A stretch of 32,000 nt of DNA. Source: Trichlorobacter lovleyi SZ. GTDB lineage: Bacteria; Desulfobacterota; Desulfuromonadia; Geobacterales; Pseudopelobacteraceae. The notes under the pieces were generated by a model. It ran no database searches. It saw nothing but the letters and a program-made list of their open reading frames with translations, and was not told the origin of the DNA. A program made the position numbers and the translations under genes. The stretch spans positions 1,230,001-1,262,000 of the forward strand of contig NC_010814.1 of NCBI RefSeq assembly GCF_000020385.1. The letters run 5' to 3'. This document shows positions 4,129 through 22,498 of this stretch, piece by piece (the first letter of the stretch is position 1; each line of letters starts with the position of its first letter).

Positions 4129-4190
4129 CAGATCCCTGACGGCGTGCCTCGTTCATGCGAGGTGCGCCGTATTACTTCCACGGAGCGCAG

Positions 4191-4460: not shown

Positions 4461-4463
4461 ATC

Positions 4464-4691
4464 ATGAAACTGGAAGTGTTGGGCACCGGCTGTGCCAAGT
4501 GCAAGACCCTGCTTGAAAACGTCAAGAAGGCCGTTGAGACCTCTGGTAAAGAGGCGGAGATCGTCAAGGTTGAGGATATCCCTTCAATCATGAAGTACGG
4601 TGTGATGAGTACCCCGGCCCTGGTTAAGGACGGCAAGGTGCTGTTTTCCGGCAAGCTGGCCACACCTGAAGAGATTGCGGGGATGCTCTGA
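4464..4691 (+). CDS. Thioredoxin-fold redox-active disulfide protein 2 family (small cytoplasmic CxxC protein)
   Basis: MKLEVLGTGCAKCKTL... with GCAKC active site. 75 aa. Typical partner of COG0701 permeases. Confidence 0.85.
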   Translation: MKLEVLGTGCAKCKTLLENVKKAVETSGKEAEIVKVEDIPSIMKYGVMSTPALVKDGKVLFSGKLATPEEIAGML

Positions 4692-5748: not shown

Positions 5749-5788
5749 AGGAACAGCTGCAAGAGCGATAATTGACAAGGAACTGACC

Positions 5789-6760: not shown

Positions 6761-6790
6761 TTACAAACATTGTCTGAGGGAGAAATAGTT

Positions 6791-7258
6791 ATGCAACGTA
6801 CGTTCGTTCTTATCCTGTTGGTGCTTGGGCTTTTCGTGCTGCCCGCTGCTGCGGCTGAAGAGGTCTTTGATCGCTTTCTGGCCGGATTTGACTACGATAC
6901 CCGGGCTGATATGAAGACCGACAGCAAGCGGTTGATCAAACTGCTTGAGGAGAAAAAGGCGGTGCTGGTGGATATCCGCTTTCCTGAGGAGACCAGGGCC
7001 TGGCGGATGGGGTTTGGTCTGTTTATTCCGCTTAATGAGCTGCCCAAACGTCTTGCCGAACTGCCCAAGGACAAGATCATCGTCACCGCCTGTCCCCACA
7101 AGGACCGTTCCTCGATTGCTATGGCCTATCTGCGCACCAAAGGCTATAATGCGCGCTACCTGACCGACGGGCTGATTGGTCTGGCTGAAAACCTGCGGGG
7201 CGATACTGCCAAGGACTTTTTGGAAGACGCCGGTTTGGCACCGGCTGGAAAGAAGTGA
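6791..7258 (+). CDS. Periplasmic single-domain rhodanese-like sulfurtransferase
   Basis: ORF trimmed to ATG 6791. Signal peptide MQRTFVLILLVLGLFVLPAAAA. Active-site loop CPHKDRS (CX4R). Confidence 0.8.
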   Translation: MQRTFVLILLVLGLFVLPAAAAEEVFDRFLAGFDYDTRADMKTDSKRLIKLLEEKKAVLVDIRFPEETRAWRMGFGLFIPLNELPKRLAELPKDKIIVTACPHKDRSSIAMAYLRTKGYNARYLTDGLIGLAENLRGDTAKDFLEDAGLAPAGKK

Positions 7259-7572
7259 GCATGCTGAATACCCTGGAGTACAGCGCTGACGTGCTGAAGG
7301 CGATCTCGCAGCCGACCCGCTTAAGGATCATCGAACTGTTGCGGGATGGTGAGCATTGTGTCTGCGAGATCTTTCCGGCGATCGGGCATGAACAGTCCAA
7401 CACCTCCCGTCACCTGCAGATGATGCTGAAGAGCGGTATCCTTAACCAGCGCAAGGATGGGCTGAAGATCTACTACTCCCTGCGGCACCCGGAGGTGCTG
7501 GAGATAGTACGGCTGGCCGGTCTGATTGCCGCTCATGAGGCAACGCAACGGGCTGCGCTGTTTACCAGGTAG
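7255..7572 (+). CDS. ArsR/SmtB-family metalloregulatory repressor
   Basis: ISQPTRLRIIELL...GEHCVCEI...SNTSRHLQMML winged-HTH pattern. GTG 7255 overlaps the upstream stop; ATG 7261 is an alternative start. Confidence 0.85.
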   Translation: MSMLNTLEYSADVLKAISQPTRLRIIELLRDGEHCVCEIFPAIGHEQSNTSRHLQMMLKSGILNQRKDGLKIYYSLRHPEVLEIVRLAGLIAAHEATQRAALFTR

Positions 7573-7591
7573 TCTGAGAAAAGGGAGGAGT

Positions 7592-8248
7592 ATGACCAGA
7601 GAACAGTGGTTGCAACGGGCAAACTGGCTGGCGTTGTTTACCATCTTCTACAATATTGCAGAGGGCGTCGGATCGGTCTGGTTCGGGGCGGCTGACGAGA
7701 CCCTGTCGCTGTTCGGTTTCGGCGTGGATTCCTTTATCGAAGTAATCTCGGCAATCGGTATCTGGCACATGCTGCGCCGGATCAAGGCCAACGGAGGAGA
7801 GTCGCGGGACGAATTTGAGCAGCGTGCCTTGCGGATTACCGGCGCTGCCTTCTACCTGCTGACCATTGGTCTGGTGCTGACTGCCGGCATCAACCTCTAC
7901 CAGCAGCACAAGCCGGAGACCACCGTCTGGGGTATTGTGATCTCACTGTTCTCGATCTCGTTCATGTGGCTGTTGATTCACTACAAGACAAAGGCCGCTA
8001 CGGCCCTTGCCTCACCGGCAATCATGGCTGATGTGGCCTGTTCCAGGGCCTGCATGTATCTGTCGGTCGCCTTGCTGATCGCCAGCGTGGGGTATGAACT
8101 GACCGGGCTCGGTTATTTTGATGCCGTTGGTGCGCTGGTGATCTCCTGGCTGACCTATAAGGAGGGGCGGGAGTCCTTTGGCAAGGCCAGGGGGTTGGCA
8201 TGCTCCTGCAGCTGTTCTTGTGAATCAGCCAAGGAGAGTTCATTGTGA
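7592..8248 (+). CDS. Cation-efflux (CDF-like) membrane protein lacking the cytoplasmic C-terminal domain, with a Cys/Ser-repeat tail
   Basis: ORF trimmed to ATG 7592, which follows GGGAGGAG. TM profile with FGVDSFIEV motif. Tail ACSCSCSCESAKESSL. Confidence 0.7.
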   Translation: MTREQWLQRANWLALFTIFYNIAEGVGSVWFGAADETLSLFGFGVDSFIEVISAIGIWHMLRRIKANGGESRDEFEQRALRITGAAFYLLTIGLVLTAGINLYQQHKPETTVWGIVISLFSISFMWLLIHYKTKAATALASPAIMADVACSRACMYLSVALLIASVGYELTGLGYFDAVGALVISWLTYKEGRESFGKARGLACSCSCSCESAKESSL

Positions 8249-9279: not shown

Positions 9280-10389
9280 ATGGAAAAGTGTATCACGTAT
9301 GTCGGGCTTGATGTTCACAAAAACTCCATAGATGTCGCTTTGGCCGATGAAGGCCGTGACAAGGAAGTCCGTTACTACGGCACTATTGACGGCAGTCTTG
9401 ATGCATTGGACAAAGTTCTCAGAAAACTGGTTTCTCGTGGTACCGAACTTCGATTCGTCTATGAAGCTGGCCCGTGCGGTTATGACATCTATCGGCACCT
9501 AACCCGTAAGGGTTTTGATTGTATCGTGGTTGCCCCTTCTTTGATTCCCAAGAAGAGCGGCAGCCGAATAAAGAATGATCGGCGTGATGCCGAGATGCTG
9601 GCCCGTCTGCACCGAGCAGGCGAACTGACTCCGGTCTATGTTCCGCGCATCGAAGATGAGGCAATGCGCGACCTCTGCAGGGCCCGTATCGATGCAAAGA
9701 ATGCTGAGCGAAAGGCCCGTCAGCAATTGAATGCATTTCTGCTGCGCAGCGGCTTCCGCTATAGCGGCAAAACACTCTGGAGTCTTGCCCATTGGCGTTG
9801 GATCTCCGACATACACATGACGCATTCCGCACAGCAGATCACCCTGCAGGAGTATGTGGATGCAGTCAGATCGAACACAGAGCGCGTTGATAGGATCACG
9901 GAACAGATTTGCCTGCTTGCTGCAGAATGGCGACTTGGTCCGGTTGTCGAAGCGCTCCAAGCTCTGCGGGGAGTCTCTCTGGTAGTTGCCTCAACCACCG
10001 TTGCTGAGCTTGGTGACTTGAGTCGCTTTGACAATCCCCGACATCTGATGGCGTATCTGGGGCTTGTACCTTCAGAACACTCAAGTGGAGAGTCAACACA
10101 GCGAGGCGGTATAACCAAGACTGGCAATGGACATGCACGCCGAATGCTGGTCGAAGCTGCCTGGTCGTATCGGTTGCCGGCACGGGTTAGCAGGCGACTT
10201 CGAGACCGACAACAGAATCTGCCGCAAGCGGTATGGGAGATTGCCTGGAAGGCACAGCTCAGACTTTGCGCCCGCTACAAACGACTTGTTACCAAAGGCA
10301 AGCAGGCACAGGTAGTCATTACCGCCATTGCCAGAGAACTGTCCGCATTCATGTGGGCTATAGCCCAAGCAGTACCAGTCGCATCGTAA
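9280..10389 (+). CDS. IS110-family DEDD transposase/recombinase
   Basis: YVGLDVHK, VYEAGPCGY, KNDRRDA and C-terminal GLVPSEHSSGES..RGGITKTGNGHARRMLVEAAW motifs. AAGGAGG RBS. Confidence 0.9.
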   Translation: MEKCITYVGLDVHKNSIDVALADEGRDKEVRYYGTIDGSLDALDKVLRKLVSRGTELRFVYEAGPCGYDIYRHLTRKGFDCIVVAPSLIPKKSGSRIKNDRRDAEMLARLHRAGELTPVYVPRIEDEAMRDLCRARIDAKNAERKARQQLNAFLLRSGFRYSGKTLWSLAHWRWISDIHMTHSAQQITLQEYVDAVRSNTERVDRITEQICLLAAEWRLGPVVEALQALRGVSLVVASTTVAELGDLSRFDNPRHLMAYLGLVPSEHSSGESTQRGGITKTGNGHARRMLVEAAWSYRLPARVSRRLRDRQQNLPQAVWEIAWKAQLRLCARYKRLVTKGKQAQVVITAIARELSAFMWAIAQAVPVAS

Positions 10390-11039: not shown

Positions 11040-11834
11040 TTAGTCAACAGCCAGGGATTGCAGGAGCTGCCGCCACTCCTCATCGTTGAGTGGTACCGGG
11101 CGCATCAGCGTCTGAGGCCTGATGGCCCGCGGGTTCTTCAGCCAGCGCTTCAGCCGTTCTTCACTCCAGCTGCTGCCGTTTTCGAAGGTGGGGGGATAAA
11201 ACCTGGTCAATAGGCCGGACAGGTTGGGGCCGGCAATGCCCCGTCCCAGTCCACCGTCCCGTTTTGAAAGCAGTTTGTGGCAACCGCCGCATTGTCTGGT
11301 AAAGAACGTTTGCTGGCCTGTCTGCAGGTTGCTGAAATGGACCAGCAGCGGAGGTTCCCGGGTGGCCTTGCCAGCTTGCAGCCCCCCCGCCAGGATGGCG
11401 GTGATCAAACGATCAAGATCCGGTGGTGAAAAATGAAAATCAGGCATCTGCTGGGCCGGTTCCACCAGGGCCTTACGGATCAGCTCCGGTTTGGTGGTCC
11501 AGAGCAGGCTGTCCAGGTTTGATGCCAAACGGTTGCCTGTGCCTGCCAGGGTATGGCAGCGACGGCAGGCGGTCTGATCAGCCAGTTTTTTCCCGGCCAC
11601 AAGGCTTGCTGATCGGGGATTGGTAAAGCTGGCCTGCTGACCTTTAATCAGGTTGCCATGGGCCAGTTCTTTCCGGCTGGTCTGCGGGTTGCCCCGATGA
11701 CAGTACCGGCAACTGCCCTGTTCCGTATAGTGTGCCGGGTGGCAGTCCAGGCAGAGGTCGCGGGGAGCCGCCTGAGCTGAACAGAGCCAGATCAGAAGCA
11801 GAACCGTTGTCAGAACGGAAGCACGAAGGCCCAA
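11040..11834 (-). CDS. Periplasmic tetraheme c-type cytochrome, last gene of the Rieske/cyt b operon
   Basis: TTG start. Signal peptide ...LLLIWLCSAQA. CLDCH, CRYCH, CRRCH and CGGCH motifs. 25-nt overlap with the upstream gene. Confidence 0.8.
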   Translation of the reverse strand: MGLRASVLTTVLLLIWLCSAQAAPRDLCLDCHPAHYTEQGSCRYCHRGNPQTSRKELAHGNLIKGQQASFTNPRSASLVAGKKLADQTACRRCHTLAGTGNRLASNLDSLLWTTKPELIRKALVEPAQQMPDFHFSPPDLDRLITAILAGGLQAGKATREPPLLVHFSNLQTGQQTFFTRQCGGCHKLLSKRDGGLGRGIAGPNLSGLLTRFYPPTFENGSSWSEERLKRWLKNPRAIRPQTLMRPVPLNDEEWRQLLQSLAVD

Positions 11835-12220
11835 TTTTCCCCCCTGAAAAACAGTCCGATCAGCGTCAGAACAAGTATTCCCAGAAACAGCAGCAGTGCG
11901 GTAACGGCAGCCAGGCGATGCCGGGGGCCGAACCAGGCCGCCTTGTCAGGCGTCCTGGTGATCAGCCAGGGCAGGGCGATCAGGAACAGGCCGGCCAGCA
12001 GCACCGGATAGATCAACCAGACCCGGTAGCTGACCAGCTCCTGAATCCAGAGCAGGAACCAGGCGGATTTGACCGGATTGGGCACAACCGCCAGTCTGGC
12101 CGGTTCCTGAAGCGGCGCAGGGATCAGGGCTGCCAGCAGCAGTAGCGCTGCTGTACAAAGCCAGAAAGCACGCAGTATCAGGCGGAAAAAGTGCGGTGAG
12201 CTCTTGATGTAGTTCTTCAT
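11810..12220 (-). CDS. Cytochrome b C-terminal-domain / b6f subunit IV-like membrane protein
   Basis: ATGA overlap with the cyt b gene. Three TM segments. NPVKSAWFLLWIQEL occupies the position of the PEWY-type motif. Confidence 0.7.
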   Translation of the reverse strand: MKNYIKSSPHFFRLILRAFWLCTAALLLLAALIPAPLQEPARLAVVPNPVKSAWFLLWIQELVSYRVWLIYPVLLAGLFLIALPWLITRTPDKAAWFGPRHRLAAVTALLLFLGILVLTLIGLFFRGENWAFVLPF

Positions 12221-12837
12221 AGGTAGGGGAGCAGCCCTTTCTGCTTGCGGACCAGGTAAAAATGCAACAGACAGAGCGTGATGGTGATCATCGGCAGCAC
12301 CACCACATGCAGCACATAGAAGCGGATCAGGGATAATGGTCCTCCCACTGTGTCAGGCACCAGAATGTCGCGCAGAAAACTGCCCAGCGGTATGGTTTCC
12401 AGCAGGGTCATGCCGGTCTGGGTGGCCCAGAGCGCCAGCTGATCCATCGGCAGCAGGTACCCGGTGTAGGCCTCAAAGACCGCCAGCCCCAGCAGGCAGA
12501 TGCCGATAATCCAGTTGCGCTGACGGGGCGGGGCAAAGGCGCCGGTCAGTACCACCCGCAGGGTGTGCAGCATGATCAGGACAAGAAAGAGGTGGGATGT
12601 CATCCGGTGCAGACTGCGCAGGTACCGGCCGCCATAGACCGCTGACTCCAGAAAGATGATCGAGTTGTAGGCCTCTGTAGCGCCGGGGCGATAGTAGAAC
12701 AGCAGCAGCAGGCCGGACAGTGCCAGCAGCAGCAGGCTGCTAAAGGCCAGGCCGCCCAGACAGAGGGTGTAGCTGATCCTGAGATTCTGCTCCAGTACCA
12801 CTCTGGGAAAGAGGTGTTTGAGAAACTCTTTGAACAA
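12217..12837 (-). CDS. Cytochrome b6-type (N-terminal four-helix) cytochrome b
   Basis: TTG start with GGAGG 8 nt upstream. Motifs LFYYRP, RSLHRMTSHLFLVLIMLHTLRV and RFYVLHVVVLP...LLHFYLVRKQ, carrying the conserved heme-ligand His pairs. Confidence 0.85.
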   Translation of the reverse strand: MFKEFLKHLFPRVVLEQNLRISYTLCLGGLAFSSLLLLALSGLLLLFYYRPGATEAYNSIIFLESAVYGGRYLRSLHRMTSHLFLVLIMLHTLRVVLTGAFAPPRQRNWIIGICLLGLAVFEAYTGYLLPMDQLALWATQTGMTLLETIPLGSFLRDILVPDTVGGPLSLIRFYVLHVVVLPMITITLCLLHFYLVRKQKGLLPYL

Positions 12838-12854
12838 GGTGCAATCCTCCCTTA

Positions 12855-12977
12855 TTCCGATTCCATTTCAAGGCGCTCTCTTCGTTGGTTCGTCACCGGC
12901 TCCTCAACGTACTGCGTGTACGCCTGCGTCGCCTATTTCCTCACCGCCTTGATATCATCCTTGAACTGGAATCGAAA
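12855..12977. repeat. About 123-bp palindromic element (element B) filling the Rieske to cyt b intergenic gap
   Basis: TTCCGATTCCATTTCAAGG (12855-12873) against the reverse complement of CCTTGAACTGGAATCGAAA (12959-12977), 17/19 matching. Inner CAAGGCG/CGCCTTG stem. The interior resembles element A (CTTCGTTG..., GCTCC..TC..AAC, ...GCCTTG). Confidence 0.6.
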
Positions 12978-13370
12978 TTACCCCCGCACCACCAGCGTGG
13001 CGTCATCCTGCTCAACGATCAGCCGCGGTAGCGGACGCTCTGCCGGTCCGGCCAGTACCGTGCCGCTCCGGTCAAAACGGCTGCCGTGGCAGGGGCAGAC
13101 CATCCCTTCCGGTGTGACCGAGACGGTGCAGCCCAGGTGGGTACAGACCAGGCTCAACGCAACGATATCGTTTCCTTCCCGCATGACCGCAATCCGTTCC
13201 TGGCGGAACACCAGTGCTCCTCCTGCCGGCAGGTCGGCAAGCGGCAGACGCAACAGCACCGGCTTCCTGATGCCCTTGGGGGTCAGGAAGCGCCACAGGC
13301 CTGCCGCTACCAGCGGCAGGGTGATCAGCGTGGTGATGAAGCTGCGACGGGTGTGACGAACTTTTTCCAT
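12978..13370 (-). CDS. Rieske [2Fe-2S] protein with Tat-type signal anchor
   Basis: RRSFITTL twin-arginine N-terminus. CTHLGC and CPCHGS cluster-binding boxes. Confidence 0.9.
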   Translation of the reverse strand: MEKVRHTRRSFITTLITLPLVAAGLWRFLTPKGIRKPVLLRLPLADLPAGGALVFRQERIAVMREGNDIVALSLVCTHLGCTVSVTPEGMVCPCHGSRFDRSGTVLAGPAERPLPRLIVEQDDATLVVRG

Positions 13371-14581
13371 TTTTCCACGTATGCCTTTTTGTAGGTATCA
13401 GATTTGGCGGCCAGCCGCCGGTACCGCGCTTCATTCAGAAAACTGCCGTTTACCATCCGTTGCCCACGTTGATCCCAGAAAGATGAAAGTCCCATACCGT
13501 CCTTCTGCAGATCATAAATCCGGTCCTGGGGACGCTCCAGCAGAAAACGGCGTGGATTGTCGTGGCAGCCGTCGCACATCACGGTGCCGCGCTGGATGGT
13601 ATGGGGGGCAAAGGCCCGCCATTCTGCAGCCAGGAGCAGGTTTTCCTGTCCTGCTGACCTGCCCTTTGCAAGCCGGCTGTAATAGGCGATGAACTGCGGC
13701 CGGATCGGTGCTACTTTTCCCTGACTGTTGATCCCCAGCGGCGGCAGGTCCTGCCGCCTCAGGTAGGCACTTTTTGCATAGCCGTTCTGGGTGTAGGTAA
13801 GCGCCTGATACGGATCTTCAACAGAACCGGAGGCAAATCTCAAATAGAAGGTGCCGTATTCCTGGGCGGCCCAGGCGGCGTGGCAGGCCGCACATTCCAG
13901 CTTTTCCAGGTGCGCTGCGATCCGGTGTTCAAGCACCGTGCTGCTGGGGTGGTGGCAGTCTCTGCAGGACCTGGCTGCGGTCCTGCCGGCAATCAGGCTC
14001 TGCATGGTGTGACAGGCAGAGCAGGTCATGCCCTTTTGCTGATGCACATCCGGCAGCATTTTCAGAAAGGTTTCCCCCTCCAACCGCCGGCCACGCTGGT
14101 AGCGTTCATGCTCTTCCCGCGGAGCCCGACCGAAGTAATCCCAGCCCACGTAGTAACCCTTGTGGCATTTTGAGCAGGTATCTGCCTTGGGACGGCTGAT
14201 GGCATGGCCGTTGCCGTGGCAGTCCCGGCAGCCCTGCAGATGGCAGCCGGCACAGTTCTTCTGCTCAAAGCTGCGGTCAACCCGGCTGTAGCTGCGGGCA
14301 ATGAAGCCCTGCTCCTTGGTGCGGGTTCCCATGGCATGCAGATACATCCGCTGGTAGCCCTGGTGACACCGTACGCACCCTGCCGAGCCGTTGTCCCGGC
14401 CAGCGGGGTCAGCCAGAAGCTGCCGGCCGTTCCGGTGGCAGTCTTGACAGGCCACCCTGCTGTGAATACCACTGATCTGTATGCCGGCAGCGTGGCAGAG
14501 CCGGCACTGATCGGCAGCCCCGGCAGTGAGGCAGCTAACGAGGAGCCAGCAGGCGGCGATGAACGGTATCGTCCAGGTCAC
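13325..14581 (-). CDS. Decaheme c-type cytochrome
   Basis: GTG start. Hydrophobic N-terminus. Ten CXXCH motifs (CRLCH, CQDCH, CVRCH, CAGCH, CRDCH, CSKCH, CSACH, CRDCH, CAACH, CDGCH). Its 3' end overlaps the Rieske start by 46 nt. Confidence 0.85.
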   Translation of the reverse strand: MTWTIPFIAACWLLVSCLTAGAADQCRLCHAAGIQISGIHSRVACQDCHRNGRQLLADPAGRDNGSAGCVRCHQGYQRMYLHAMGTRTKEQGFIARSYSRVDRSFEQKNCAGCHLQGCRDCHGNGHAISRPKADTCSKCHKGYYVGWDYFGRAPREEHERYQRGRRLEGETFLKMLPDVHQQKGMTCSACHTMQSLIAGRTAARSCRDCHHPSSTVLEHRIAAHLEKLECAACHAAWAAQEYGTFYLRFASGSVEDPYQALTYTQNGYAKSAYLRRQDLPPLGINSQGKVAPIRPQFIAYYSRLAKGRSAGQENLLLAAEWRAFAPHTIQRGTVMCDGCHDNPRRFLLERPQDRIYDLQKDGMGLSSFWDQRGQRMVNGSFLNEARYRRLAAKSDTYKKAYVEKWKKFVTPVAASSPR

Positions 14582-16379
14582 GGTAGTTGATCCTTTTCCG
14601 GTAGATCGGGTCTTTGGCCGATGTGTGGCAGACCAGACAGAGGTTGACCTGCAGGGTGCGTTGCACTTCCTGCTGGTTGAGCGGCCGGGCGTTTGCGCGG
14701 GTGATGGCCGAGTAGGCCTGTACCTGTCCCTTGTGCATGGTCAGATAACCGTCCAGCGGCTTGTTGTCTGAAAGCTCGCAGATTAAGGTCCCTTTGATGC
14801 TGCGTCCCTCGACAATATGCTGGCCGAATCCCAGGAAGGCGGGGTTGGCGTGGCACTGGGCGCATCCCACGGCCTGCCTGCCGGTGTTGTGGCCGTGGAA
14901 CGGTGCGAAGCGCAGCTGGCGCTTGCCTTTGTACTGCATGATCGCCTCATTCTGCAACACCGTGCCCTGCTCATCAACCACGGTCACGAAGGTCTGGCAG
15001 CCGGGGGTGACCGGCGAGATCCGGCCTTTCTGATTCAGGGCCAGGGGAAACGGGTAGAGGGTGCGGTAATCCTCGGTCTCGCTGAACTGTCCCGGTGTCT
15101 CTACCCCCTTGATAAAATCCATCTGGGTATTTTCCCGGTCATACCGGGTATGGCAGCCGTAACACTGCACCACAGTCCGGGAGTGACAGGCAGTGCAGGT
15201 CAGGCGTCCATGTCCGGTCACTGTATGTTCAGGTGTGCCGGTTATGATTTTAGAACGGAGCAGTCTGCCGCTCTGCTTGACCTGTACCACGACATTACCG
15301 TCAACATGAAAGACGTTTGAGAAAGGGCGCCCTTTGGAGGTCAGGATCATCTCCATGCCTGGCCGCATCTGCAGCGGGTAGGAACGGGATTCCCGAACCG
15401 GATCTTCATTTTCGCGGAGAATGGCACGGTAGCGGGGTGGTCTGTCAACAGAGCCGTGACAGTCTTCACAGGTGACCTCAAGCTGCCCGTGCAGGCTGGC
15501 TGAGGCATAGCCCTCCCCCATGACTTCCCGTGAGGTGTGGCAGTCAATACAGTCCATACCGGCAGTGTAATGGATATCCGGGGCGATATGGGTAAAGTTG
15601 CGCAGATCGCTGCCCCTGACCGGTCCCGGCTGTCCGTTGCGGGTGGGAACCATGCCGTTGTTGCCGTCCATCAGACCCTGGTAGGAGAGGGCTGTCCGCC
15701 CGCTGCGGTGGTGGCACTGGGCACAGGATTGCAGCGACGGCAGCGCATGCATGGCATGGCTGGAGCCATGGGGTGATTTACCCCGCATGGTTGGATCGCC
15801 TCCGTTGTAGGTGGCCTGGGCCTCATAGGGGAAGTGGCAGGCGGCGCATCCGGCCGGGTTGCCGGCACCGTTGCCCGGGTCCTGATGTCTGGCCAGATGG
15901 CAGCGGGCGCAGAACTTGCGGTACAGTTCTCCTGACAGGTTGTCCAGTTGAGCGACCTCCTGCTGCTTAAGCGCTTTGCCGTCAGTGTCATATAACTGCG
16001 CTGCCTGGCTGCCGTAGCGGATACCGGGGCGTTCGCCCTCCCAGGTGGCCTGGATCTGGGCAATCATGCCTGCCGCGGTAAACATCTGGCTGCTCTGCAT
16101 CCGCTCAAGCTGGTGACGGTGGCAGGGGCCGCACCCCGATTCCCAGCGGCCGGTATAGGAGCGGTTTGACAGACCGTAGATGCCGCGATGTGCCTCTGCT
16201 TTGGTCTTGGCTGCAGGATTGCCGCCGTGACAGGTTACACAACCACTGTGGCTGGAAGAGGTCTGTTCGATCCCCTTGTGGCAGGATAAGCACTGTTCAT
16301 GTTGGGCGTTGCGCGGAGAACAGCCCATAAGTGAAAAAGTACTTAAAATCAAAAGTATGAAGAAAAAAAATATGCGCAT
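14535..16379 (-). CDS. Dodecaheme c-type cytochrome lipoprotein
   Basis: ORF 14535..16475 trimmed to ATG 16379 (MRIFFFFILLILSTFSLMGC, lipobox LMGC). Twelve CXXCH motifs. 47-nt overlap with the next gene. Confidence 0.8.
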   Translation of the reverse strand: MRIFFFFILLILSTFSLMGCSPRNAQHEQCLSCHKGIEQTSSSHSGCVTCHGGNPAAKTKAEAHRGIYGLSNRSYTGRWESGCGPCHRHQLERMQSSQMFTAAGMIAQIQATWEGERPGIRYGSQAAQLYDTDGKALKQQEVAQLDNLSGELYRKFCARCHLARHQDPGNGAGNPAGCAACHFPYEAQATYNGGDPTMRGKSPHGSSHAMHALPSLQSCAQCHHRSGRTALSYQGLMDGNNGMVPTRNGQPGPVRGSDLRNFTHIAPDIHYTAGMDCIDCHTSREVMGEGYASASLHGQLEVTCEDCHGSVDRPPRYRAILRENEDPVRESRSYPLQMRPGMEMILTSKGRPFSNVFHVDGNVVVQVKQSGRLLRSKIITGTPEHTVTGHGRLTCTACHSRTVVQCYGCHTRYDRENTQMDFIKGVETPGQFSETEDYRTLYPFPLALNQKGRISPVTPGCQTFVTVVDEQGTVLQNEAIMQYKGKRQLRFAPFHGHNTGRQAVGCAQCHANPAFLGFGQHIVEGRSIKGTLICELSDNKPLDGYLTMHKGQVQAYSAITRANARPLNQQEVQRTLQVNLCLVCHTSAKDPIYRKRINYRDLDDTVHRRLLAPR

Positions 16380-16440
16380 GGTAATTTGGGACAGCATAGC
16401 AGCAGACCGGGAATCTTGCCAGTGACAGGATGATATCTGC

Positions 16441-16470
16441 AGAAAAAAGCCGGCGGTTTGAGCCGCCGGC
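16441..16470 (-). terminator. Rho-independent terminator after the Sec-cytochrome gene
   Basis: On the minus strand: GCCGGCGG-CUCAAA-CCGCCGGC followed by UUUUUU. Lies 52 nt past the stop at 16522. Confidence 0.75.
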
Positions 16471-16521
16471 ACCACATGAAGGAGGGATAGGTGAGTATCC
16501 CTGTGTTGCTTGTTTTGCCGG

Positions 16522-17865
16522 TTATTTTCCGGTAGTACTGATTTTTACGGTCTTTTTGAACTCTTTCCAGAGGAACGGATCATCATCCATGGTGCCGAAC
16601 GGCAGGTACCAGAGCCTGACTTCCAGATCCAGGGTGTCGCTGCTGATGCTGCTTACCTTCTTGCCATCCTTCTCCTCTGTCTTGACCGGGAAGAAGATGT
16701 CATGGGTTGTGATGATCGTCCTCAACGGCGGCAGGCTGGTGTCTTCCAGCATACCGCTCTTTTCGTAAGGACCACGTCCCATCCGGTCGCCTTTACCCAG
16801 TTGCTGAGGAATCGGCATGAATATACGTTCTGCGTTGAATACTTCCTTGCCACTCTTGTCTTTTGCTTTTACCGACAGAACCAGTCGGTTGGGGGTCGGT
16901 CAGCCATCGGGTATGCCGTGACCGGCCTTGTTGGTCAGCTCAATCCGTACCGCTGCCTTGGGACGGATAGTCGTGTTATCCCGCCAGTAGACCGAGTTGG
17001 TTTCCACATGCATCTCAACCGCCTTTTGAGCCATCTCCTTGGAGCGGTAACTCTGCATGTTATGGCCCAGCTTGCTCTCACGCATATGGCACTGCTGGCA
17101 GCTCTTGTTGCCCCCTTCCGGTATATAGGCCATCAGGTAGCTGGCATAGCCGGTTGCACACTGGGTCGGGTTTTCCTGATCAAAGTTGGGGCCCTGTCCG
17201 TGACACTGGCCACACATGATCGATTCAGACATGATCTGCCCTTTGGCCATTTTGGTGAACTTGCCATCCATATGCTCGCCTGACTTGCTGCCGTAGACCG
17301 TATCCTTTTTGGGGTAGCCTTCAGACCACTTGTGGGTAATGGCATTACGGTTGTGGCAGATCAGGCAGTTAATATTAAGTGAGGAAAGGGTCTTCTCAAG
17401 TTTTTCTGCCTTGTCGGTATCTTCCTTTTTAATGGCGGCATCCCAATCCCAGAGCGTGGTCACGATTTCCTGAGCAACCTTGTCGGTTGCATCAGCCAGT
17501 TGGGGCAGGTGACACTTGGTACAGCCCTGCAGGTGTTCAACCTTGACATCCTTGGGTGACTTGACACCGGAGGCGGGCCAATCCATTGCGCCGTTGATGA
17601 TAGCGGTCCTGAAGGTGGCTGCAGTACGTCCTGTGCCAAAGATAGAGCGGGCGTGGATCGATTTTGCCCATTCGTCATGGGCCTGCTGATGGCAGCCGAT
17701 GCAGGAACTGGAGTCATAGCGTGCCACCAGTTCGGCAATACTGTTGGCCTTGGGCTGCGAAGCAAGGGTGGCGTCGCGGCCAACACCGACAGGAGCGGCA
17801 AGCGCCGCTACGGCAAAGGTACTAAGTGCCAGGCAGGCCAGAACTGTAGTACGAAATAGGTGCAT
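16522..17865 (-). CDS. extKL: Pentaheme c-type cytochrome selenoprotein (ExtKL-type); TGA at 16902-16900 read as Sec (447 aa)
   Basis: ORFs 16900..17865 and 16522..16818 are in the same frame (offset 1047 nt) with no other stop between them. Junction: ...NKAGHGIPDG-U-PTPNRLVLSVKAKDKSGKEV... Five CXXCH motifs (CIGCH, CTKCH, CLICH, CGQCH, CQQCH). SECIS-like hairpin downstream. The gene context matches extHIJKL. Confidence 0.8.
16871..16889 (-). promoter_or_regulatory. Candidate SECIS hairpin for TGA 16902-16900
   Basis: Minus-strand RNA ACCGAC-UGGUUCU-GUCGGU: 6-bp perfect stem with GGU in the loop. The loop begins 17 nt after UGA. Confidence 0.55.
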
Positions 17866-17907
17866 AGTGATTACTCCCCGTGAATCATTAAAGCTGCCAT
17901 GTCTGGT

Positions 17908-18192
17908 TTAGCAGCCTTGCAGGGCTGCCGCTGCCTTGTCCACCTTGACTGTGTCGCCAGCCTTCAGATCGGCAGCATTTGGTGCCTGGATGGTAAGTTT
18001 TGCACCGTCCACAGCAGTAACCTTGCCGGCTTTCCCGTTCAACTTTACCTTGGCGCCTGCTTTGAATTTTGCATCAGCGCCCATTTCAACCACAGCCTGG
18101 CCATCGGCAACGGAAACCACCTTGCCCTCGGCAGCAAAGGCAGCAGTGGCGGCAAAGAGGGACAGAGTCAGTACGGAAATGAGTTTCTTCAT
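17908..18192 (-). CDS. Small secreted Lys/Ala/Gly-rich beta-type protein ending in -Gly-Cys
   Basis: ORF trimmed to ATG 18192 (AGGAG upstream). Signal peptide MKKLISVLTLSLFAATAAFA. Internal repeats GKVVSVADGQAVV and GKVTAVDGAKLTI. C-terminus ...AAAALQGC followed by TAA. Confidence 0.7.
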   Translation of the reverse strand: MKKLISVLTLSLFAATAAFAAEGKVVSVADGQAVVEMGADAKFKAGAKVKLNGKAGKVTAVDGAKLTIQAPNAADLKAGDTVKVDKAAAALQGC

Positions 18193-18230
18193 TGTTTTCT
18201 CTCCTTTTGATTCGTAATGGGCAGACAGGG

Positions 18231-18581
18231 CTACATTGAGTCTACCGGTTGTGCCCACCTGATTTTAATCCCGGACCGTTCAGCTGCCTTGGCAGGTTCC
18301 GAAACCTTTGGAGGCGCCGCCTTTGGTGAGGGTGCCGTGGCAGCATCAGGCACGGCTTTGGTGGCAGCTGCAGCATTCGAGCCTGGTTGCTGAACCTGTT
18401 GAGCTTCTTCTTTGCTGCGGCGGAAACTGACCTGTTCAACCGGATCGCCGTTCTGCTCAATCCGTATCGTCTGAATCTTGCCTGAGCGGTGCGTGATAAT
18501 GATCTCGTCAGCCATGGATGCGGTTGCCATTGAAAAGAGGCCAAGGCTCATCAAGGCAGGAAGCAGTTTCAGAACATTCAT
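18231..18581 (-). CDS. Small secreted protein with an Ala/Pro-rich low-complexity tail (occupies the ExtJ position)
   Basis: ORF trimmed to ATG 18581. Signal peptide MNVLKLLPALMSLGLFSMATASMA. Confidence 0.6.
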   Translation of the reverse strand: MNVLKLLPALMSLGLFSMATASMADEIIITHRSGKIQTIRIEQNGDPVEQVSFRRSKEEAQQVQQPGSNAAAATKAVPDAATAPSPKAAPPKVSEPAKAAERSGIKIRWAQPVDSM

Positions 18582-18649
18582 GTAGGCTCCTGATCTGGTT
18601 GTTGTCCGGTCAGGGGGTAACACGTTCCCCCCGACCGGGCTTGGCATGG

Positions 18650-19861
18650 TTAGAAAATCACCTGTAGCTGGGTAATAAAGGTGTTGAAGTCTTTGGTCCG
18701 TACATTGGTACCATCCGGACCGCTGTAGGTACCCTTCTTGTCAAACATGGTCATGCCGTACTCCATGGTAACCTTCAGGTTCTGGCCCCAGATGTAGTAG
18801 TTGGCACCGACGCCGGCCCAGTCAACCCGCTGGTCGTAAATGTTGTTCAGTTGGGCAAATTTCCACTTTTCGTAGCGGCCGAAGAGTTGCAGCGGCAGGT
18901 TGGGCAGCATGTAGCCTCCCTTGAGGTACCAGCCGTTTTTCTCCCCGTTCAGTCCGATGGTGTTCGTGTCGGGGTTGGCGCCCAGATAGGCGTTGTCCAG
19001 CTTGTAGTTGGCGTAGGCACCGGAAACGGTAATGGTGCCCATATCTTTAACCGGATACTCAAAGAAACCGTCCAGGGTCCAGGCGTAATAATCCTTTTCA
19101 CCGGTTTTTGCTGCCACGTTGCTGTAGGCAACCTTCGGTTCATACTGCATGGCACCGCCGATGGTCAAAACCTTCTTTTTGCCCAGATAGGTCCCCTTGT
19201 AGCCATAGTCGTTCTCCGGATCAAGCAGCGAGGCATGGGCCCGCATGGTGTAGCGGAAGTTGGATTTGGGAGCACTCTCGCCGGAAGCCGCTTTCCGCCC
19301 TTCCATGACGTCAAGCCGGTACTGGAACATATCCTTGTACACGTTGCCCCAGACTGCCAGACCCATGTCACGGGTGGTCACAAAGGGGGCGCGGATGAAC
19401 AGGGAACGGTCCAGCGTCAGAGGCATTTCACAGGCCTCCAGGTTCTCACGCGAGAAATTGTACTTGAATTTACCGACATTGACATTGAAGGCGTCATGCA
19501 GGTTAAAACGTACAACCGCATCCAGGATCGTGAATTCAGGGTTGGTCGGCGTACTGTTGACTCCCAGAGTGTTGATGCTGGTCTGGTCCACAAACTCCGT
19601 CTGCACATACAGGCTCATCATATCGCCATAGGCCCCCATCAGGGCCAGCCGGTTCCGGCGGAAGTTGAAGTTGGTGGTTGTGTCATCGTTGTTGGTGCCT
19701 GAACCGCTGTCACGGACAGTCATCTGGAACTGGCCCTTATAGTCAATTTGCAGCACCCCTTTATCATCAGGCCCGAAGGTTATCTGGGGGCCGGCCATGG
19801 CCGGTGCGGCCAGGCCCAGCATCAGTGCGGCTGCAGCGCTTACTTTACCGATTTTAGTCAT
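18650..19861 (-). CDS. extI: Outer-membrane beta-barrel porin (ExtI-like)
   Basis: Start ATG 19861 (AGGAG 9 nt upstream); ATG 19894 is an alternative. Signal peptide ...LGLAAPAMA. Alternating beta-strand pattern rich in Y/G/N. C-terminal ...QLQVIF ends in the typical terminal Phe. Confidence 0.75.
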   Translation of the reverse strand: MTKIGKVSAAAALMLGLAAPAMAGPQITFGPDDKGVLQIDYKGQFQMTVRDSGSGTNNDDTTTNFNFRRNRLALMGAYGDMMSLYVQTEFVDQTSINTLGVNSTPTNPEFTILDAVVRFNLHDAFNVNVGKFKYNFSRENLEACEMPLTLDRSLFIRAPFVTTRDMGLAVWGNVYKDMFQYRLDVMEGRKAASGESAPKSNFRYTMRAHASLLDPENDYGYKGTYLGKKKVLTIGGAMQYEPKVAYSNVAAKTGEKDYYAWTLDGFFEYPVKDMGTITVSGAYANYKLDNAYLGANPDTNTIGLNGEKNGWYLKGGYMLPNLPLQLFGRYEKWKFAQLNNIYDQRVDWAGVGANYYIWGQNLKVTMEYGMTMFDKKGTYSGPDGTNVRTKDFNTFITQLQVIF

Positions 19862-19926
19862 AGAAGATTTCTCCTTTGATATGTGCTGAGTCATAGACTG
19901 GTTATCCGATGGACTCTACGGCTGGA

Positions 19927-21279
19927 TCAGCAGCCGCTGCCGGTGCCACCGCCGCCGCCACCGCCGGTTGTTGTGCCGCCGCTGGTGAAGTAGGCCTTGT
20001 CTTCGTTCAGCATCTGGTTGGCGCGGGGATCGGTGATGGTTGAATAGATGGCATTAGCGATTGGGTCTATGGTTAGTGTTGCCGGCTTGACGTTGCCGGT
20101 GCCGGCAGGATCATACAGAGAAGCATTTGCGGTTCTGTTTATTGCCACTGTTGCAGAGGTGTTGACATTGGTGCGCCATGCCGTAGCCACCGGGCTTGTT
20201 GAGAGGGATGTGTAACCGCTCCATTGGCCCCATGAACCGTCATACAGGGTGACCGGCCAGCCGAGGATGCCGTCCAGGACAAAGAATGCCGTTGAGGCAC
20301 GCATGCCGCTGGCGCAGTAGAGGTAGGTCATGGTTTTGTTGGCGGTTATGCCAAAATTGGCAAGATTGGCGGTTAATGCAGCGGTATCCTTGAATGTTCC
20401 TGCCACGGTGCCGTAATAGTTCATATGGCTGTCAAGGACAGTGGTGGTTCCGTTGTTATAGGTGGCTGCATTGGCAATGTACGGGTGAGTGGTCACGTTG
20501 ACACCGCCACGCTCATCCATGATGGCGACACCGGTTGCGCCGGTGCTGATGGTTCCGGCATTGATCTTGTCCACAAGGTTGATCATTTCGCCGATTGAGT
20601 AACGCAGGTTAAAGTTGGTGGTGGTTGTGCCGTTATACAGGTTCTTGACGCTGAAAGTGGAGGCCGGGATGGTCGGTACGGTTGCTGTCACCGCGTAGGC
20701 TGCCGGCCATGTAGCCGCCGCAGTTGTCCAGGCGGTCTGGCCACCGTTGAGGATCTTTACGCGTTCTTTGGGGAAGCCCCAGTAGCGAAGTGTGAAATAG
20801 ACCCTGGATGCGTTCATGGCTGTGTCGGTCCCTGTCGGGGCAATGACAATCGTCGTATACTGGTTGATACCGAGTCTTTGGATATGTCCGTCAATGGTCG
20901 GGCCGTCCATAACCATGGTGCCGATCGCAGTGACACCTTCCAGGCGGGTCAGGTTCAGTGCCCCGGAGTCCAGTAACTGCGAACCGGGGATGTGGGCTGT
21001 GGCATAGTTGGCCGGGGTTCCTACTGATACAATCACTACCCGATCACGGGTTGCAGGGTCGGGGTTGTTGACCTTGCCTTCATCCATCCATTGTTTAAGG
21101 GTTGCCGGTTCAATCAGTGCCGTTGCTGTTTTTGTCGTTGTGATTGAGGCATTGGGGTCAGTGTAGCTGCTGGTTCCGCCTCCACCTCCGCAACCCCACA
21201 GTGTCAGTGCGGTGGTCAGCAGTAAGCCGGCCAGACTGAACAGCATGCTCCTTCTTGTCATCACAAAACGTTGCATCAT
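19927..21279 (-). CDS. extH: Multi-domain rhodanese-family lipoprotein (ExtH-like) with a Gly-rich C-terminal tail ending in Cys
   Basis: AGGAGG 5 nt upstream of ATG 21279. Lipobox TLWGC followed by GGGGG. Rhodanese motifs ATAHIPGS and YCASGMRAS (CX4R). Tail TSGGTTTGGGGGGGTGSGC followed by TGA. Confidence 0.75.
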   Translation of the reverse strand: MMQRFVMTRRSMLFSLAGLLLTTALTLWGCGGGGGTSSYTDPNASITTTKTATALIEPATLKQWMDEGKVNNPDPATRDRVVIVSVGTPANYATAHIPGSQLLDSGALNLTRLEGVTAIGTMVMDGPTIDGHIQRLGINQYTTIVIAPTGTDTAMNASRVYFTLRYWGFPKERVKILNGGQTAWTTAAATWPAAYAVTATVPTIPASTFSVKNLYNGTTTTNFNLRYSIGEMINLVDKINAGTISTGATGVAIMDERGGVNVTTHPYIANAATYNNGTTTVLDSHMNYYGTVAGTFKDTAALTANLANFGITANKTMTYLYCASGMRASTAFFVLDGILGWPVTLYDGSWGQWSGYTSLSTSPVATAWRTNVNTSATVAINRTANASLYDPAGTGNVKPATLTIDPIANAIYSTITDPRANQMLNEDKAYFTSGGTTTGGGGGGGTGSGC

Positions 21280-21360
21280 ACACACCTCCTGAGGTTTTGG
21301 CCTGTCGGCCGTTGGTTGGGGCATACGCAGGTTTCCTGTGACATGCGTACGCGGACTGAT

Positions 21361-21372: not shown

Positions 21373-21565
21373 GTATTCATATGTAGGACCGGGTACTCCG
21401 AAATGCAGGCGGAGTTGTTGTTTTCTTTAGTAAATTTGTTGTAAGATGCAGGGTGAATATTGAGTTCAATCATTCTGATGGTTTACATGGATTTTTTACC
21501 ACATTTGCGCTACAGTCGGTTTGCGAAACTTTTTCTTGACTGTATTCCTGTTTGGCAGGGGTAAA

Positions 21566-21581
21566 ATCCAGATATCTGGAT
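21566..21581. promoter_or_regulatory. Perfect 16-bp palindrome ATCCAGATATCTGGAT; candidate LysR-type (T-N11-A) autoregulatory box
   Basis: Read directly. Ends 23 nt upstream of the LysR ATG (21605). Confidence 0.45.
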
Positions 21582-21604
21582 ATCTTTATGGGACGGTGAC
21601 AGGG

Positions 21605-22498
21605 ATGGATATTGATGTGTTAAAGAGTCTGGTGGCTGCCGTGGAGACGGGGTCGTTTTCCCGTGCGGCAACTTCGCTCTATATCAGTCAGTCAGCGGTC
21701 TCTAAACGCGTAAAGATGCTTGAGGATAAGTTGGGACTGGCCTTGTTGGACCGCTCCGGCCCCCAGTTGCAACTGACTCCGGCCGGCAGGATCGTGGTGA
21801 AAAACGCCAAGGCGATCATTGACGTTTGCTGCCGCTGCACGGAAGAGTTACGGCAGTTTAGGCAGGAACGAAATGTTTCATTCTGCTGCACGCCGGCCTT
21901 TGGCCTGACCTATCTTCCCAAGATCGTGCGGGCTTTTATGGAGCTGCGGCCCGATGTGAGTAGTTTTCGTTTTACCTTTGACAACCCTGAAAAGATCATG
22001 GACGGTCTGCAGAGTGGTGACTTTCAGATGGCGGTGGTTGAACATTGCGACTTTTTCCCGCTTCAGGGGACCGTGATTGACAGGTTGCCGGATGATGTGA
22101 TGCTGCTGGTAGGCCCCGCCTCCCTTGGCGCCCAGTCGCAGCAATGGACACTTGACGAACTGCTGGCAAAAAATATCTGCGTCCGTTCAAATGGCTGTTG
22201 TTCCCGTCTGATCCTTGAGGACAAAATGGCGGCAGCAGGCAGGTCAATGGATGCGTTCAGCCGGGTGCTGACCTATGATGACCTTAACATGATTCTGGAG
22301 GCGGTACTCGAAGGTGACGGTGTCGGGTATGTCGCCAGGAACGTGGTTGAAAAACATCTGGCGGACGGCACCATGGTTGCCTTGGAGGTGCCCGGTTTCG
22401 AACAGGTCTTCCATCGTTCTCTGCTGGTGGGCCCCAGTTTCCAGCCGTCGCAGGAGTCGGATGACCTGATCCGGCTGATTCGTGAGATTACCTGTTGA
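21605..22498 (+). CDS. LysR-family transcriptional regulator, divergent from the ext-like cluster
   Basis: ORF trimmed to ATG 21605. N-terminal HTH LVAAVETGSFSRAATSLYISQSAVSKRVKMLE. 297 aa, a typical LTTR size. Confidence 0.85.
   Translation: MDIDVLKSLVAAVETGSFSRAATSLYISQSAVSKRVKMLEDKLGLALLDRSGPQLQLTPAGRIVVKNAKAIIDVCCRCTEELRQFRQERNVSFCCTPAFGLTYLPKIVRAFMELRPDVSSFRFTFDNPEKIMDGLQSGDFQMAVVEHCDFFPLQGTVIDRLPDDVMLLVGPASLGAQSQQWTLDELLAKNICVRSNGCCSRLILEDKMAAAGRSMDAFSRVLTYDDLNMILEAVLEGDGVGYVARNVVEKHLADGTMVALEVPGFEQVFHRSLLVGPSFQPSQESDDLIRLIREITC

Follow-up and report, generated by a model that had tools for sequence, protein, structure and literature searches.

Does the TGA at positions 16902..16900 end a short cytochrome gene, or does it encode selenocysteine (Sec) within a longer one? 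The window analysed here is the whole stretch of 32,000 nucleotides (32 kb), and all features discussed lie on its minus strand. Two open reading frames (ORFs) are called on either side of the TGA. The first (16900..17865) encodes 321 aa with five CXXCH motifs and stops at the TGA, and the second (16522..16818) shares its frame. Between the two, 81 nt (16819..16899) are free of stops and translate as PTPNRLVLSVKAKDKSGKEVFNAERIF. When 17865..16522 is translated as a whole, it forms one frame of 448 codons including the TAA (447 residues), in which the TGA, flanked as GHGIPDG-U-PTPNR, is the sole interruption. The same-frame ORFs, the open stretch of 81 nt and the GHGIPDG-U-P context had all been claimed in a preliminary description of this DNA, and each was confirmed on the sequence. 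Past the TGA, 125 sense codons run to the TAA at 16524..16522, a length with a chance probability of p ~0.005 as calculated from the base composition of the gene. The reading that we favour, with a probability of roughly 0.93, is that 17865..16522 would be one gene, orthologous to Geobacter sulfurreducens extKL/mccSep, with its UGA read as Sec.

The ends of the frame can be recognized in the sequence. A Shine-Dalgarno-like GGGGAG (17874..17879) is found 8 nt 5' of the ATG at 17865. The encoded N-terminus, MHLFRTTVLACLALSTFAVAALA-AP, resembles a Sec-type signal peptide when read on its own. The putative signal peptide of about 24 residues (MHLFRTTVLACLALSTFAVAALAA; 17794..17865) aligns with that of G. 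sulfurreducens MccSep, which was shown by Edman sequencing to be cleaved after residue 25 (PMC13510729). The product had been described as an envelope protein, a loose label for a protein that is probably periplasmic. A hairpin resembling an intrinsic terminator, with eight G-C pairs followed by TTTTTT, is located 52 nt past the TAA of the gene (16449..16470).

The identity of the gene was addressed with profile and structure comparisons, for which the U of the fused protein was written as C. The fused protein scored 602.5 bits (cut-off 250) against the equivalog HMM NCBIfam NF040886, "multiheme c-type cytochrome (seleno)protein ExtKL", with residues 13-442 covering positions 8-422 of the 423 in the profile. 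It also aligned over its full length with MccSep in PDB entries 9WT8 and 9WT9 (E ~1e-189; residues 8-447 against 9-450 of the chain), and its identity to the G. sulfurreducens protein is 61.6%. MccSep, which is GSU2937-2936 or ExtKL, has been purified and crystallised as a five-heme selenoenzyme with polysulfide reductase activity, and mass spectrometry together with quantification of selenium showed that Sec is inserted at its homologous DG-U-PTPNR site (PMC13510729). That extK and extL are in fact one gene had previously been proposed in print (PMC5877670, PMC6148476). The precedent named in the preliminary description is thus borne out by the literature, the profile score and the full-length alignment. 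Its proposal that the two ORFs are fused into one pentaheme selenocysteine cytochrome is likewise supported by the profile, by the MccSep alignment and by the TGA kept in every locus compared. The selenol beside the hemes had seemed mechanistically unusual; a structural and mechanistic account of it has since been published (PMC13510729).

The neighbourhood is also that of an extKL gene. It is surrounded by the extHIJKLMNOPQS cluster, on one strand and in the published order (PMC5877670), with weaker assignments for extP and extO. Upstream lie extH, encoding a rhodanese-like lipoprotein (19927..21324; NF040901, 515.6 bits, cut-off 200), extI, encoding an outer-membrane porin (18650..19894; NF040900, 705.3 bits, cut-off 150), and extJ, encoding a small periplasmic protein (17908..18258; NF040942, 64.6 bits, cut-off 52.5), the true start of which is probably an internal ATG (MKKLISV...). 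Between extI and extJ, the lineage of the window carries an extra conserved small ORF (18231-18647) relative to G. sulfurreducens. Downstream, 11040..16475 holds extM, extN, a Rieske gene (extO), extP, extQ and extS, which were assigned with NCBIfam and Pfam and encode multiheme cytochromes and a bc-type module. ExtM, ExtN, ExtQ and ExtS scored above the cut-offs of NF040943, NF040967, NF040970 and NF040971, and ExtP scored below that of NF040969 (220 bits, cut-off 290). The Rieske ORF at the position of extO matched Pfam PF00355 only, with no match to an Ext-specific NCBIfam model.

All residues reported to be catalytic in MccSep are conserved in the alignment. The five heme motifs are CIGCH (residues 55-59, 17689..17703; CIECH in MccSep), CTKCH (115-119, 17509..17523), CLICH (167-171, 17353..17367), CGQCH (218-222, 17200..17214) and CQQCH (256-260, 17086..17100), and their starts at 55, 115, 167, 218 and 256 pair with 58, 118, 170, 221 and 259 of the G. 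sulfurreducens protein. R80 (17626..17628) corresponds to MccSep R83, which binds anions and substrate; H119, in the second motif, corresponds to H122, the proximal ligand to heme 2 in the active site; and C236 (17158..17160), invariant in our alignment A1, is the counterpart of C239, the Cys that ligates the same heme distally (PMC13510729). The remaining two residues are U322 (16900..16902), which corresponds to U325, and K369 (16759..16761), which corresponds to K372. Both lie at or beyond the TGA. The 125 residues that follow U322 (16525..16899) comprise the former "ExtL" together with the 27-codon "intergenic" stretch. In the alignment with the 9wt8 chain, 79 of these 125 residues are identical to MccSep 326-450. 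In MccSep this part forms an Ig-like beta-sandwich (PMC13510729), and by alignment the segment of the window would form the same domain, with K369 in it. Among close loci the segment is 78-94% identical, on average slightly above the conservation of the heme domain.

How well is the TGA itself conserved? It was found at the U322 codon in all 88 loci fetched (10/10 from genomes and 78/78 from metagenomes), whose proteins are 52-98% identical to that of the window, and it is followed in each of the 88 by 110-128 conserved sense codons. A homologue that stops at the TGA ahead of a separately initiated downstream gene, the outcome that would have spoken against the fused reading, was found in none of them. 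The Sec site reads GIPDG-U-PTPNR here and SIPDG-U-PTPNR in MccSep. Taken with the MccSep precedent, the locus comparison indicates that the in-frame TGA almost certainly encodes selenocysteine. Full-length homologues of a Cys type have been reported from other clades (PMC13510729); none was present in the protein searches or among the 80 best metagenome loci. The sole long match, P0040 (420 aa), was rejected as a Cys form, being frameshifted or chimeric and diverging after IELTNIA. Distant multiheme cytochromes (L013-L015, L019 and L021; 20-23% identity) are continuous across the junction, where they have the same GHxxPxG-x-P motif in the form GHxxP(T/S/G)G-x-P, and share with a weak PDB match, 5ze8 (cytochrome c552), a heme domain followed by a beta-rich domain in one polypeptide. 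In the column of the Sec these cytochromes show I, S, F or Y, they have no equivalent of C236, and at 20-23% identity they are therefore not counted as members of the MccSep family.

If the UGA is to be read as Sec, a SECIS element is expected close by, and a hairpin at 16889..16871 is the candidate. Its stem pairs ACCGAC (16889..16884) with GUCGGU (16876..16871) around the loop UGGUUCU (16883..16877). The 6-bp stem and the loop had been noted previously and stand as described. The hairpin had been placed seventeen nt downstream, whereas its stem begins at the 11th nt after the UGA (16889) and it is the loop that begins at the 17th. According to the consensus for bSECIS elements by Zhang and Gladyshev (summary in PMC13188914), the upper stem has 4-16 bp and the apical loop 3-9 nt, one of the first two loop positions is a G that is usually followed by G or U, the spacing from the UGA is defined, and the energy is -7.5 kcal/mol or lower. 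With a 7-nt loop on 6 bp, the loop sequence U-G-G-U-U-C-U, 16 nt between UGA and loop (16899..16884), which is the lower limit of the spacing, and -8.1 kcal/mol for the hairpin alone or -9.1 in context, the hairpin agrees with the consensus on all four counts. These properties support the earlier suggestion of a bacterial SECIS, and we infer that 16889..16871 acts as one, with predicted binding of SelB. A scan of the whole window at Rfam gathering thresholds gave no match.

The comparative data bear on the hairpin more directly. It is kept in 87/88 loci, as had been anticipated for orthologues of a genuine SECIS; a single orthologue (L102) does not have it as drawn. Across 71 distinct sequences the stem cells are 99.3% paired and the loop GGU (alignment columns 30-32) is invariant in 71/71. 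When L102 is set aside, the stem differs only by A-U to G-U (five sequences) and C-G to U-G (one sequence), changes that are all compatible with wobble pairing. The stem is near-invariant and contains no double compensatory substitution among the 71 sequences. Because it hardly varies, covariation shuffle controls were uninformative, and the entropy of synonymous codons was used instead. The stem codons for R327 (CGA), L328 (CTG), L330 (CTG) and S331 (TCG) have entropies of 0-0.24 bits, where the median is 1.48, and are the four lowest of the 88 conserved 4- or 6-fold degenerate columns in the gene. The hairpin is under selection at the RNA level, beyond what the protein requires. The 32 nt from the UGA (UGA plus 29 nt) of the window recur unchanged in locus L079, which encodes a protein with 96.5% identity to crystallised MccSep.

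Thermodynamics alone does not single out this hairpin. The minimum-energy fold computed with ViennaRNA for the 43 nt from the UGA (-11.5 kcal/mol, z = -2.5; z = -0.9 for a 56-nt fold) uses another 5' arm, a second copy of ACCGAC that overlaps the UGA, together with an inner AACC/GGUU helix, and is favoured over the hairpin described above by 2.4 kcal/mol. As the selected structure it was rejected. Natural variation breaks two of its pairs (in 14/71 and 13/71 sequences), its apical loop begins 13 nt past the UGA and lacks G[G/U], and a ribosome standing at the UGA would probably open its outer stem. The comparative data favour 16889..16871 over the minimum-energy fold.

Together with the structure of the crystallised enzyme, these features suggest how the gene may work. 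Translation would start at the ATG at 17865, with GGGGAG ahead of it. The hairpin ACCGAC-UGGUUCU-GUCGGU, 11 nt past the UGA and with GG at loop positions 2-3, would then recruit SelB-GTP-Sec-tRNA(Sec), so that Sec is inserted at 16902..16900 instead of termination. A further 125 codons, encoding the Ig-like C-terminal domain, would be translated up to the TAA at 16524..16522. By orthology, the mature protein would carry five hemes, with heme 2 ligated by H119 and C236, and the D-G-U-P loop, part of the C-terminal domain, would bring U322 into the distal pocket of heme 2. There the selenolate may attack polysulfide (or selenite) and hand the chalcogen to C236, after which electrons from the heme chain would cleave the Se-S-S intermediate and sulfide would be released. 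A subunit content of one Se and five hemes, a homotetramer and polysulfide and selenite reductase activities are results for the G. sulfurreducens enzyme only (PMC13510729). From that work we infer polysulfide reductase activity, a role in sulfur respiration, a tetramer, the heme ligation and the actual insertion of Sec for the protein of the window; its activity is thus predicted from 62% identity to one characterised enzyme.

Could the locus instead contain two genes, with ExtK ending at the TGA at 16900 and a small ExtL starting independently at the ATG at 16818? Gene callers split almost every homologue in this way, into an N-terminal product of ~321 aa and a C-terminal one of 86-124 aa, and homologues keep the Met at 16818 (FMPI/YMPV). 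However, the 25 nt 5' of this ATG contain no site comparable to GGGGAG, so an internal start would lack a preceding Shine-Dalgarno sequence. The 27 codons that separate the ORFs contain no stop, their protein sequence is conserved in 88/88 loci, and the called starts of "ExtL" vary between homologues (86-124 aa) while homology covers up to 94% of the 125-residue segment. In distant relatives the polypeptide runs on through the junction, and in G. sulfurreducens the crystal structure and a 49-kDa Western band are those of one polypeptide (PMC13510729). Two separate genes are therefore highly improbable. Even less credit can be given to a UGA decoded otherwise, by near-cognate read-through with Trp or Cys, or to a pseudogene with a nonsense mutation. 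The Sec machinery is indeed absent from the 32-kb window, where no selA, selB, selD or tRNA-Sec was found (ARAGORN returned no tRNA, and other large ORFs were scanned with Pfam). Against another decoding stand the freeze of synonymous sites on a hairpin of SECIS consensus, which is specific to recoding of the SelB type, and the orthologue itself, which carries Sec at the site by mass spectrometry and is nearly inactive as a U325C variant (PMC13510729). A pseudogene is difficult to reconcile with a TGA, a downstream frame and purifying selection that are retained in 88 independent loci.

A different possibility complements the single-gene reading and does not replace it. Insertion of Sec in bacteria is generally inefficient relative to termination, and competition between the two could also yield a truncated ExtK of 321 residues without the Ig-like domain, which might be a plain electron carrier and whose share would rise under selenium limitation. 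The published antibody targets the C-terminal GSU2936 part (PMC13510729), so it cannot detect a truncated N-terminal product. Against such a product, the UGA follows H316 of the conserved GH motif by only 6 residues. In MccSep, Sec and the lysine equivalent to K369 (K372) come from the C-terminal domain, which also lines the substrate channel (PMC13510729); by analogy, a protein cut short at the UGA would be without catalytic activity and might be unstable. We consider this dual output unlikely. A shade more doubtful is the proposal that the UGA is a selenium-dependent switch, giving ExtK as a stand-alone periplasmic carrier when selenium or SelB is limiting and the full-length enzyme when selenium is available. 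If true, one gene would yield two functionally distinct cytochromes.

Returning to the single selenoprotein gene, its main value lies in annotation. Callers still split it into a "cytochrome" of ~321 aa and a "hypothetical protein" of 86-124 aa in nearly every metagenome entry seen, and the locus should carry one annotation, selenoprotein extKL/mccSep. The gene also points to an organism, related to Trichlorobacter/Geobacter, that probably reduces polysulfide and elemental sulfur (and selenite) and depends on selenium. As a gene it is unremarkable, an orthologue of an already known selenoenzyme (Jahan 2018; Mihara 2026, Sci Adv), and nothing here alters current understanding. The near-invariance of the 19-nt hairpin across proteins that are 52-98% identical to that of the window adds a minor detail to the published analysis, and the hairpin could be used as a nucleotide signature when searching for the clade.

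Among known systems, bacterial SECIS elements, with that of E. coli fdhF as prototype, share with the hairpin of the window a stem-loop within the coding region and directly 3' of the UGA. The sequence likeness to the fdhF element is presumably limited to the GGU of the loop. According to PMC13510729, MccSep has a Cys-ligated catalytic heme and a Y-shaped five-heme core in common with the His/Cys-ligated heme enzymes TsdA and SoxAX of sulfur metabolism and with the catalytic multiheme cytochromes NrfA and MccA. These four are without selenocysteine, and no sequence relationship with them was detectable in our searches. The closest system is MccSep/ExtKL itself (PDB 9WT8, 9WT9, 9WTA-C). MccSep has been characterised biochemically, whereas its orthologue in the window is known here from its sequence. 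About 38% of residues differ between the two, and the non-conserved C240 of MccSep is Ala in the window. They are alike in length, putative signal peptide, five CXXCH motifs, D-G-U-P loop and C-terminal Ig-like domain, and they share the same UGA codon and the same extHIJKLMNOPQS neighbourhood.

The extKL (mccSep) gene begins with a minus-strand ORF from 17865 that spans 321 codons, carries five CXXCH motifs and ends at a TGA at 16902..16900, as read in the preliminary description. Beyond the TGA, 125 further stop-free codons run in frame to a TAA at 16524..16522, for a total of 448 codons. With the gene's own base composition, a run of this length following a stop would arise by chance with p ~ 0.005. 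The 27 codons separating the TGA from the gene-caller Met of the second ORF translate as PTPNRLVLSVKAKDKSGKEVFNAERIF, again as described. A GGGGAG Shine-Dalgarno site lies upstream of ATG 17865, and no comparable site was found upstream of the internal ATG 16818.

The read-through frame is conserved among relatives. A genome scan, with one genome per species, yielded 10 close loci covering the junction (Trichlorobacter and Geobacter MAGs, 76-88% identity), and all 10 have TGA at the equivalent codon with a matching downstream frame. On average, the C-terminal segment of these loci is conserved slightly better (78-94%) than their heme domain (75-86%). A metagenome scan added 80 loci, 78 of which reach the junction; each of the 78 has TGA followed by PTPNR(L)V(L)SV, with 110-128 more sense codons wherever the contig is long enough. 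Database gene calls almost always break extKL in two. The called N-terminal products are ~321 aa long, and the C-terminal ones are 86-124 aa with inconsistent starts and homology spanning as much as 94% of the 125-residue read-through segment. None of the outcomes named in the preliminary description as speaking against a fused gene was found.

Distant multiheme cytochromes (20-23% identity) from Gammaproteobacteria, Acidobacteriota and Gemmataceae MAGs (related loci L013-L015, L019 and L021; ~6001-7000 in most, 654-1658 in L014) are also continuous through the junction and share a GHxxP(T/S/G)G-x-P motif. Unlike the MccSep family, they have no counterpart of C236, and their Sec column holds I, S, F or Y. 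They look like a sister group of MccSep with either no catalytic role or a different one. Being uninterrupted without Sec or C236, they indicate that the two-domain polypeptide is ancestral and the Sec/Cys pair specific to the MccSep family.

The hairpin proposed as a SECIS element is formed on the minus strand by ACCGAC (16889..16884), the loop UGGUUCU (16883..16877) and GUCGGU (16876..16871). Its placement seventeen nt downstream of the UGA holds for the start of the loop and not for the stem, which begins at the 11th nt. The bacterial SECIS consensus has a loop of 3-9 nt, a stem of 4-16 bp, an energy <= -7.5 kcal/mol, a G at one of the first two loop positions with G or U next to it on the 3' side, and a UGA-loop gap of 16-37 nt (PMC13188914). 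The hairpin lies within this consensus, with a 7-nt loop, a 6-bp stem, UGG, a 16-nt gap and -8.1 to -9.1 kcal/mol. The ViennaRNA minimum-energy fold (-11.5 kcal/mol) uses another ACCGAC copy that overlaps the UGA. The two structures were discriminated with 71 distinct orthologous sequences. Across these, 99.3% of cells are paired in the hairpin, whereas two pairs of the minimum-energy fold are broken (in 14/71 and 13/71 sequences), and this fold was rejected as the selected structure. The two ACCGAC copies, at 16895-16900 (-), overlapping the A of the UGA, and at 16884-16889 (-), the SECIS 5' arm, are both complementary to GUCGGU. The UGA-overlapping copy is intact in 57/71 orthologues, roughly as expected from CCG Pro-codon preference alone; an alternative fold sequestering the UGA is thus possible and not evidently selected.

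The sole orthologue that does not form the hairpin is the related locus L102 (2047-2106; ACCGGG...GUAUGU, protein PTPNRVVLYV). By eye, another 5-bp hairpin, CCACC-CCAAACCG-GGUGG, is possible there nearer the UGA. Outside L102, the stem departs from the window's pairing in only two ways: 5 sequences have G-U in place of A-U, and 1 sequence has U-G in place of C-G. No double compensatory changes occur in the stem among the 71 sequences, and shuffle controls were uninformative because the stem barely varies. Synonymous variation was therefore measured as codon entropy at 88 amino-acid-conserved, 4- or 6-fold degenerate columns in 75 distinct genes (52-98% identity). The four degenerate stem codons (R327 CGA, L328 CTG, L330 CTG, S331 TCG) have the four lowest entropies of all 88 columns, at 0-0.24 bits vs a median of 1.48, and the flanking Pro, Thr, Gly and Val codons vary freely on both sides. 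Such a pattern is characteristic of selection acting at the RNA level. In the related locus L079, whose product is 96.5% identical to the crystallised Geobacter sulfurreducens enzyme, the 32 nt from the UGA through the hairpin are identical to those of the window.

The older reading of two separate genes, ExtK before the TGA and ExtL after it, is the one reflected in gene calls. It is contradicted by the stop-free, conserved spacer, the missing ribosome-binding site at the internal ATG, the inconsistent 'ExtL' starts and the structure of the G. sulfurreducens orthologue. The universal retention of the TGA under purifying selection, together with the SECIS-type constraint, likewise contradicts both a pseudogene and read-through of the UGA by a non-Sec route. 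Production of a truncated ExtK as a by-product under selenium limitation is improbable; it keeps a small chance because the published antibody is directed at the C-terminal part.

For the single selenoprotein, the hairpin would direct SelB-dependent recoding of the UGA at 16902..16900. The resulting 447-residue precursor would then be exported and receive five hemes. The U322 selenolate is proposed to attack polysulfide and hand sulfur to the heme-ligating C236, and heme-chain electrons would reduce the Se-S-S intermediate to sulfide. The sequence analysis itself establishes the reading frame, the family membership, the presence of the catalytic residues, the conservation of the UGA and the constraint on the RNA. 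Sec insertion, heme ligation, oligomeric state and activity of the window protein are predicted by analogy with the orthologue. Neither selA, selB, selD nor tRNA-Sec lies within the 32-kb window, so host Sec machinery is assumed.

The gene sits in a complete extHIJKLMNOPQS cluster, all on the minus strand, whose order matches the Geobacteraceae arrangement (PMC5877670): ExtH (19927-21324), ExtI (18650-19894), ExtJ (17908-18258), ExtKL (16522..17865), ExtM (14535-16475), ExtN (13325-14581), a Rieske protein (12978-13370), ExtP (12217-12837), ExtQ (11810-12220) and ExtS (11040-11834). ExtP, a cytochrome b homologue, matches NF040969 over its full length at 220 bits, under the curated cut-off of 290, and is more diverged than the other members. 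The Rieske ORF has a generic Pfam Rieske match and no Ext-specific NCBIfam match. The multiheme cytochrome at 13325-14581 (-) matches both NF040968 ('FeS_ExtO', an iron-sulfur subunit by its description) and NF040967 ('cytc_ExtN') at ~700 bits, which suggests that a database model is mislabelled or duplicated. A 138-codon ORF between extI and extJ (18231-18647, -) is absent from the published extHIJKLMNOPQS list and has neither a Pfam nor an NCBIfam match. Its probable start is an internal signal-like MNVLKLLPALMSLGLFSMATASMA, followed by an Ala/Pro/Lys-rich tail. Counterparts with 39-48% identity occupy the equivalent position in three related loci (L001, L002, L008); none was detected in a fourth, L004.

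A strong terminator-like hairpin of the intrinsic type (16449-16470, -; 8 G-C pairs, then TTTTTT) lies 52 nt past the extKL stop. It is upstream of an ATG near 16397 that is probably where extM really begins; the GTG listed as the extM start, at 16475, probably extends the ORF too far. The arrangement points to at least partly separate transcription of extHIJKL and extMNOPQS. A LysR-type regulator (21521-22498, +), divergent from extH, may regulate the cluster. About 650 nt past the extS end lies an IS110-family transposase (9280-10389, +; DEDD_Tnp_IS110 and Transposase_20), with two neighbouring cation-efflux (CDF) ORFs just upstream, the first (7526-8248) a partial domain match. A multiheme cytochrome with a Cytochrome_cB domain (57-1610) precedes a run of sulfur/redox genes (1754-7258, +) encoding an ArsP_1-type permease, a thioredoxin, a DsbD-like transmembrane protein, a DUF4405 protein and a small rhodanese. 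Two 132-aa ORFs (3321-3719 and 3966-4364, both -) have no family match.

That extK and extL might encode a single protein containing Sec was raised in 2018 (PMC6148476; PMC5877670), and ExtKL/MccSep is listed among prokaryotic selenoprotein families in a 2026 review (PMC13188914). MccSep has been purified and shown to be a single 49-kDa periplasmic product; each subunit contained 0.96 Se and 4.9 Fe, and MS identified the peptide VEMTNHAGHSIPDG-U-PTPNR (Mihara et al., Sci Adv 2026, PMC13510729). Its 1.75 Å structures show a homotetramer in which heme 2 is His/Cys-ligated (H122/C239), with the adjacent U325 on a mobile D-G-U-P loop. MccSep is a polysulfide reductase with weaker selenite reductase activity; activity is lost in U325A, U325C and C239H variants, and the gene is required for elemental-sulfur respiration. 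The family described comprises 637 sequences and falls into five clades; UGA read-through recovered 394 of the sequences (all PMC13510729).

With U replaced by C in the query, the fused protein scored 602.5 bits (curated cut-off 250) over nearly the whole of NF040886, the equivalog model 'multiheme c-type cytochrome (seleno)protein ExtKL', and matched MccSep (PDB 9wt8/9wt9) at E ~ 1e-189 from residue 8 through the final residue; Pfam gave generic multiheme domains only. The ExtKL precedent cited in the preliminary description is thereby borne out, and both its observation and its interpretation were correct. The feature is an orthologue of a selenoprotein that has been characterised, crystallised and modelled in databases; as such it is already known, and its practical value lies in correct annotation. 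In a global alignment, the window protein is 61.6% identical to the crystallised MccSep, and the five heme motifs pair one to one. All functional residues named in the structural paper are conserved (MccSep to window: R83 to R80, H122 to H119, C239 to C236, K372 to K369), and U325 corresponds to U322 in a common D-G-U-P loop. C240, described there as non-conserved, is Ala in the window protein.
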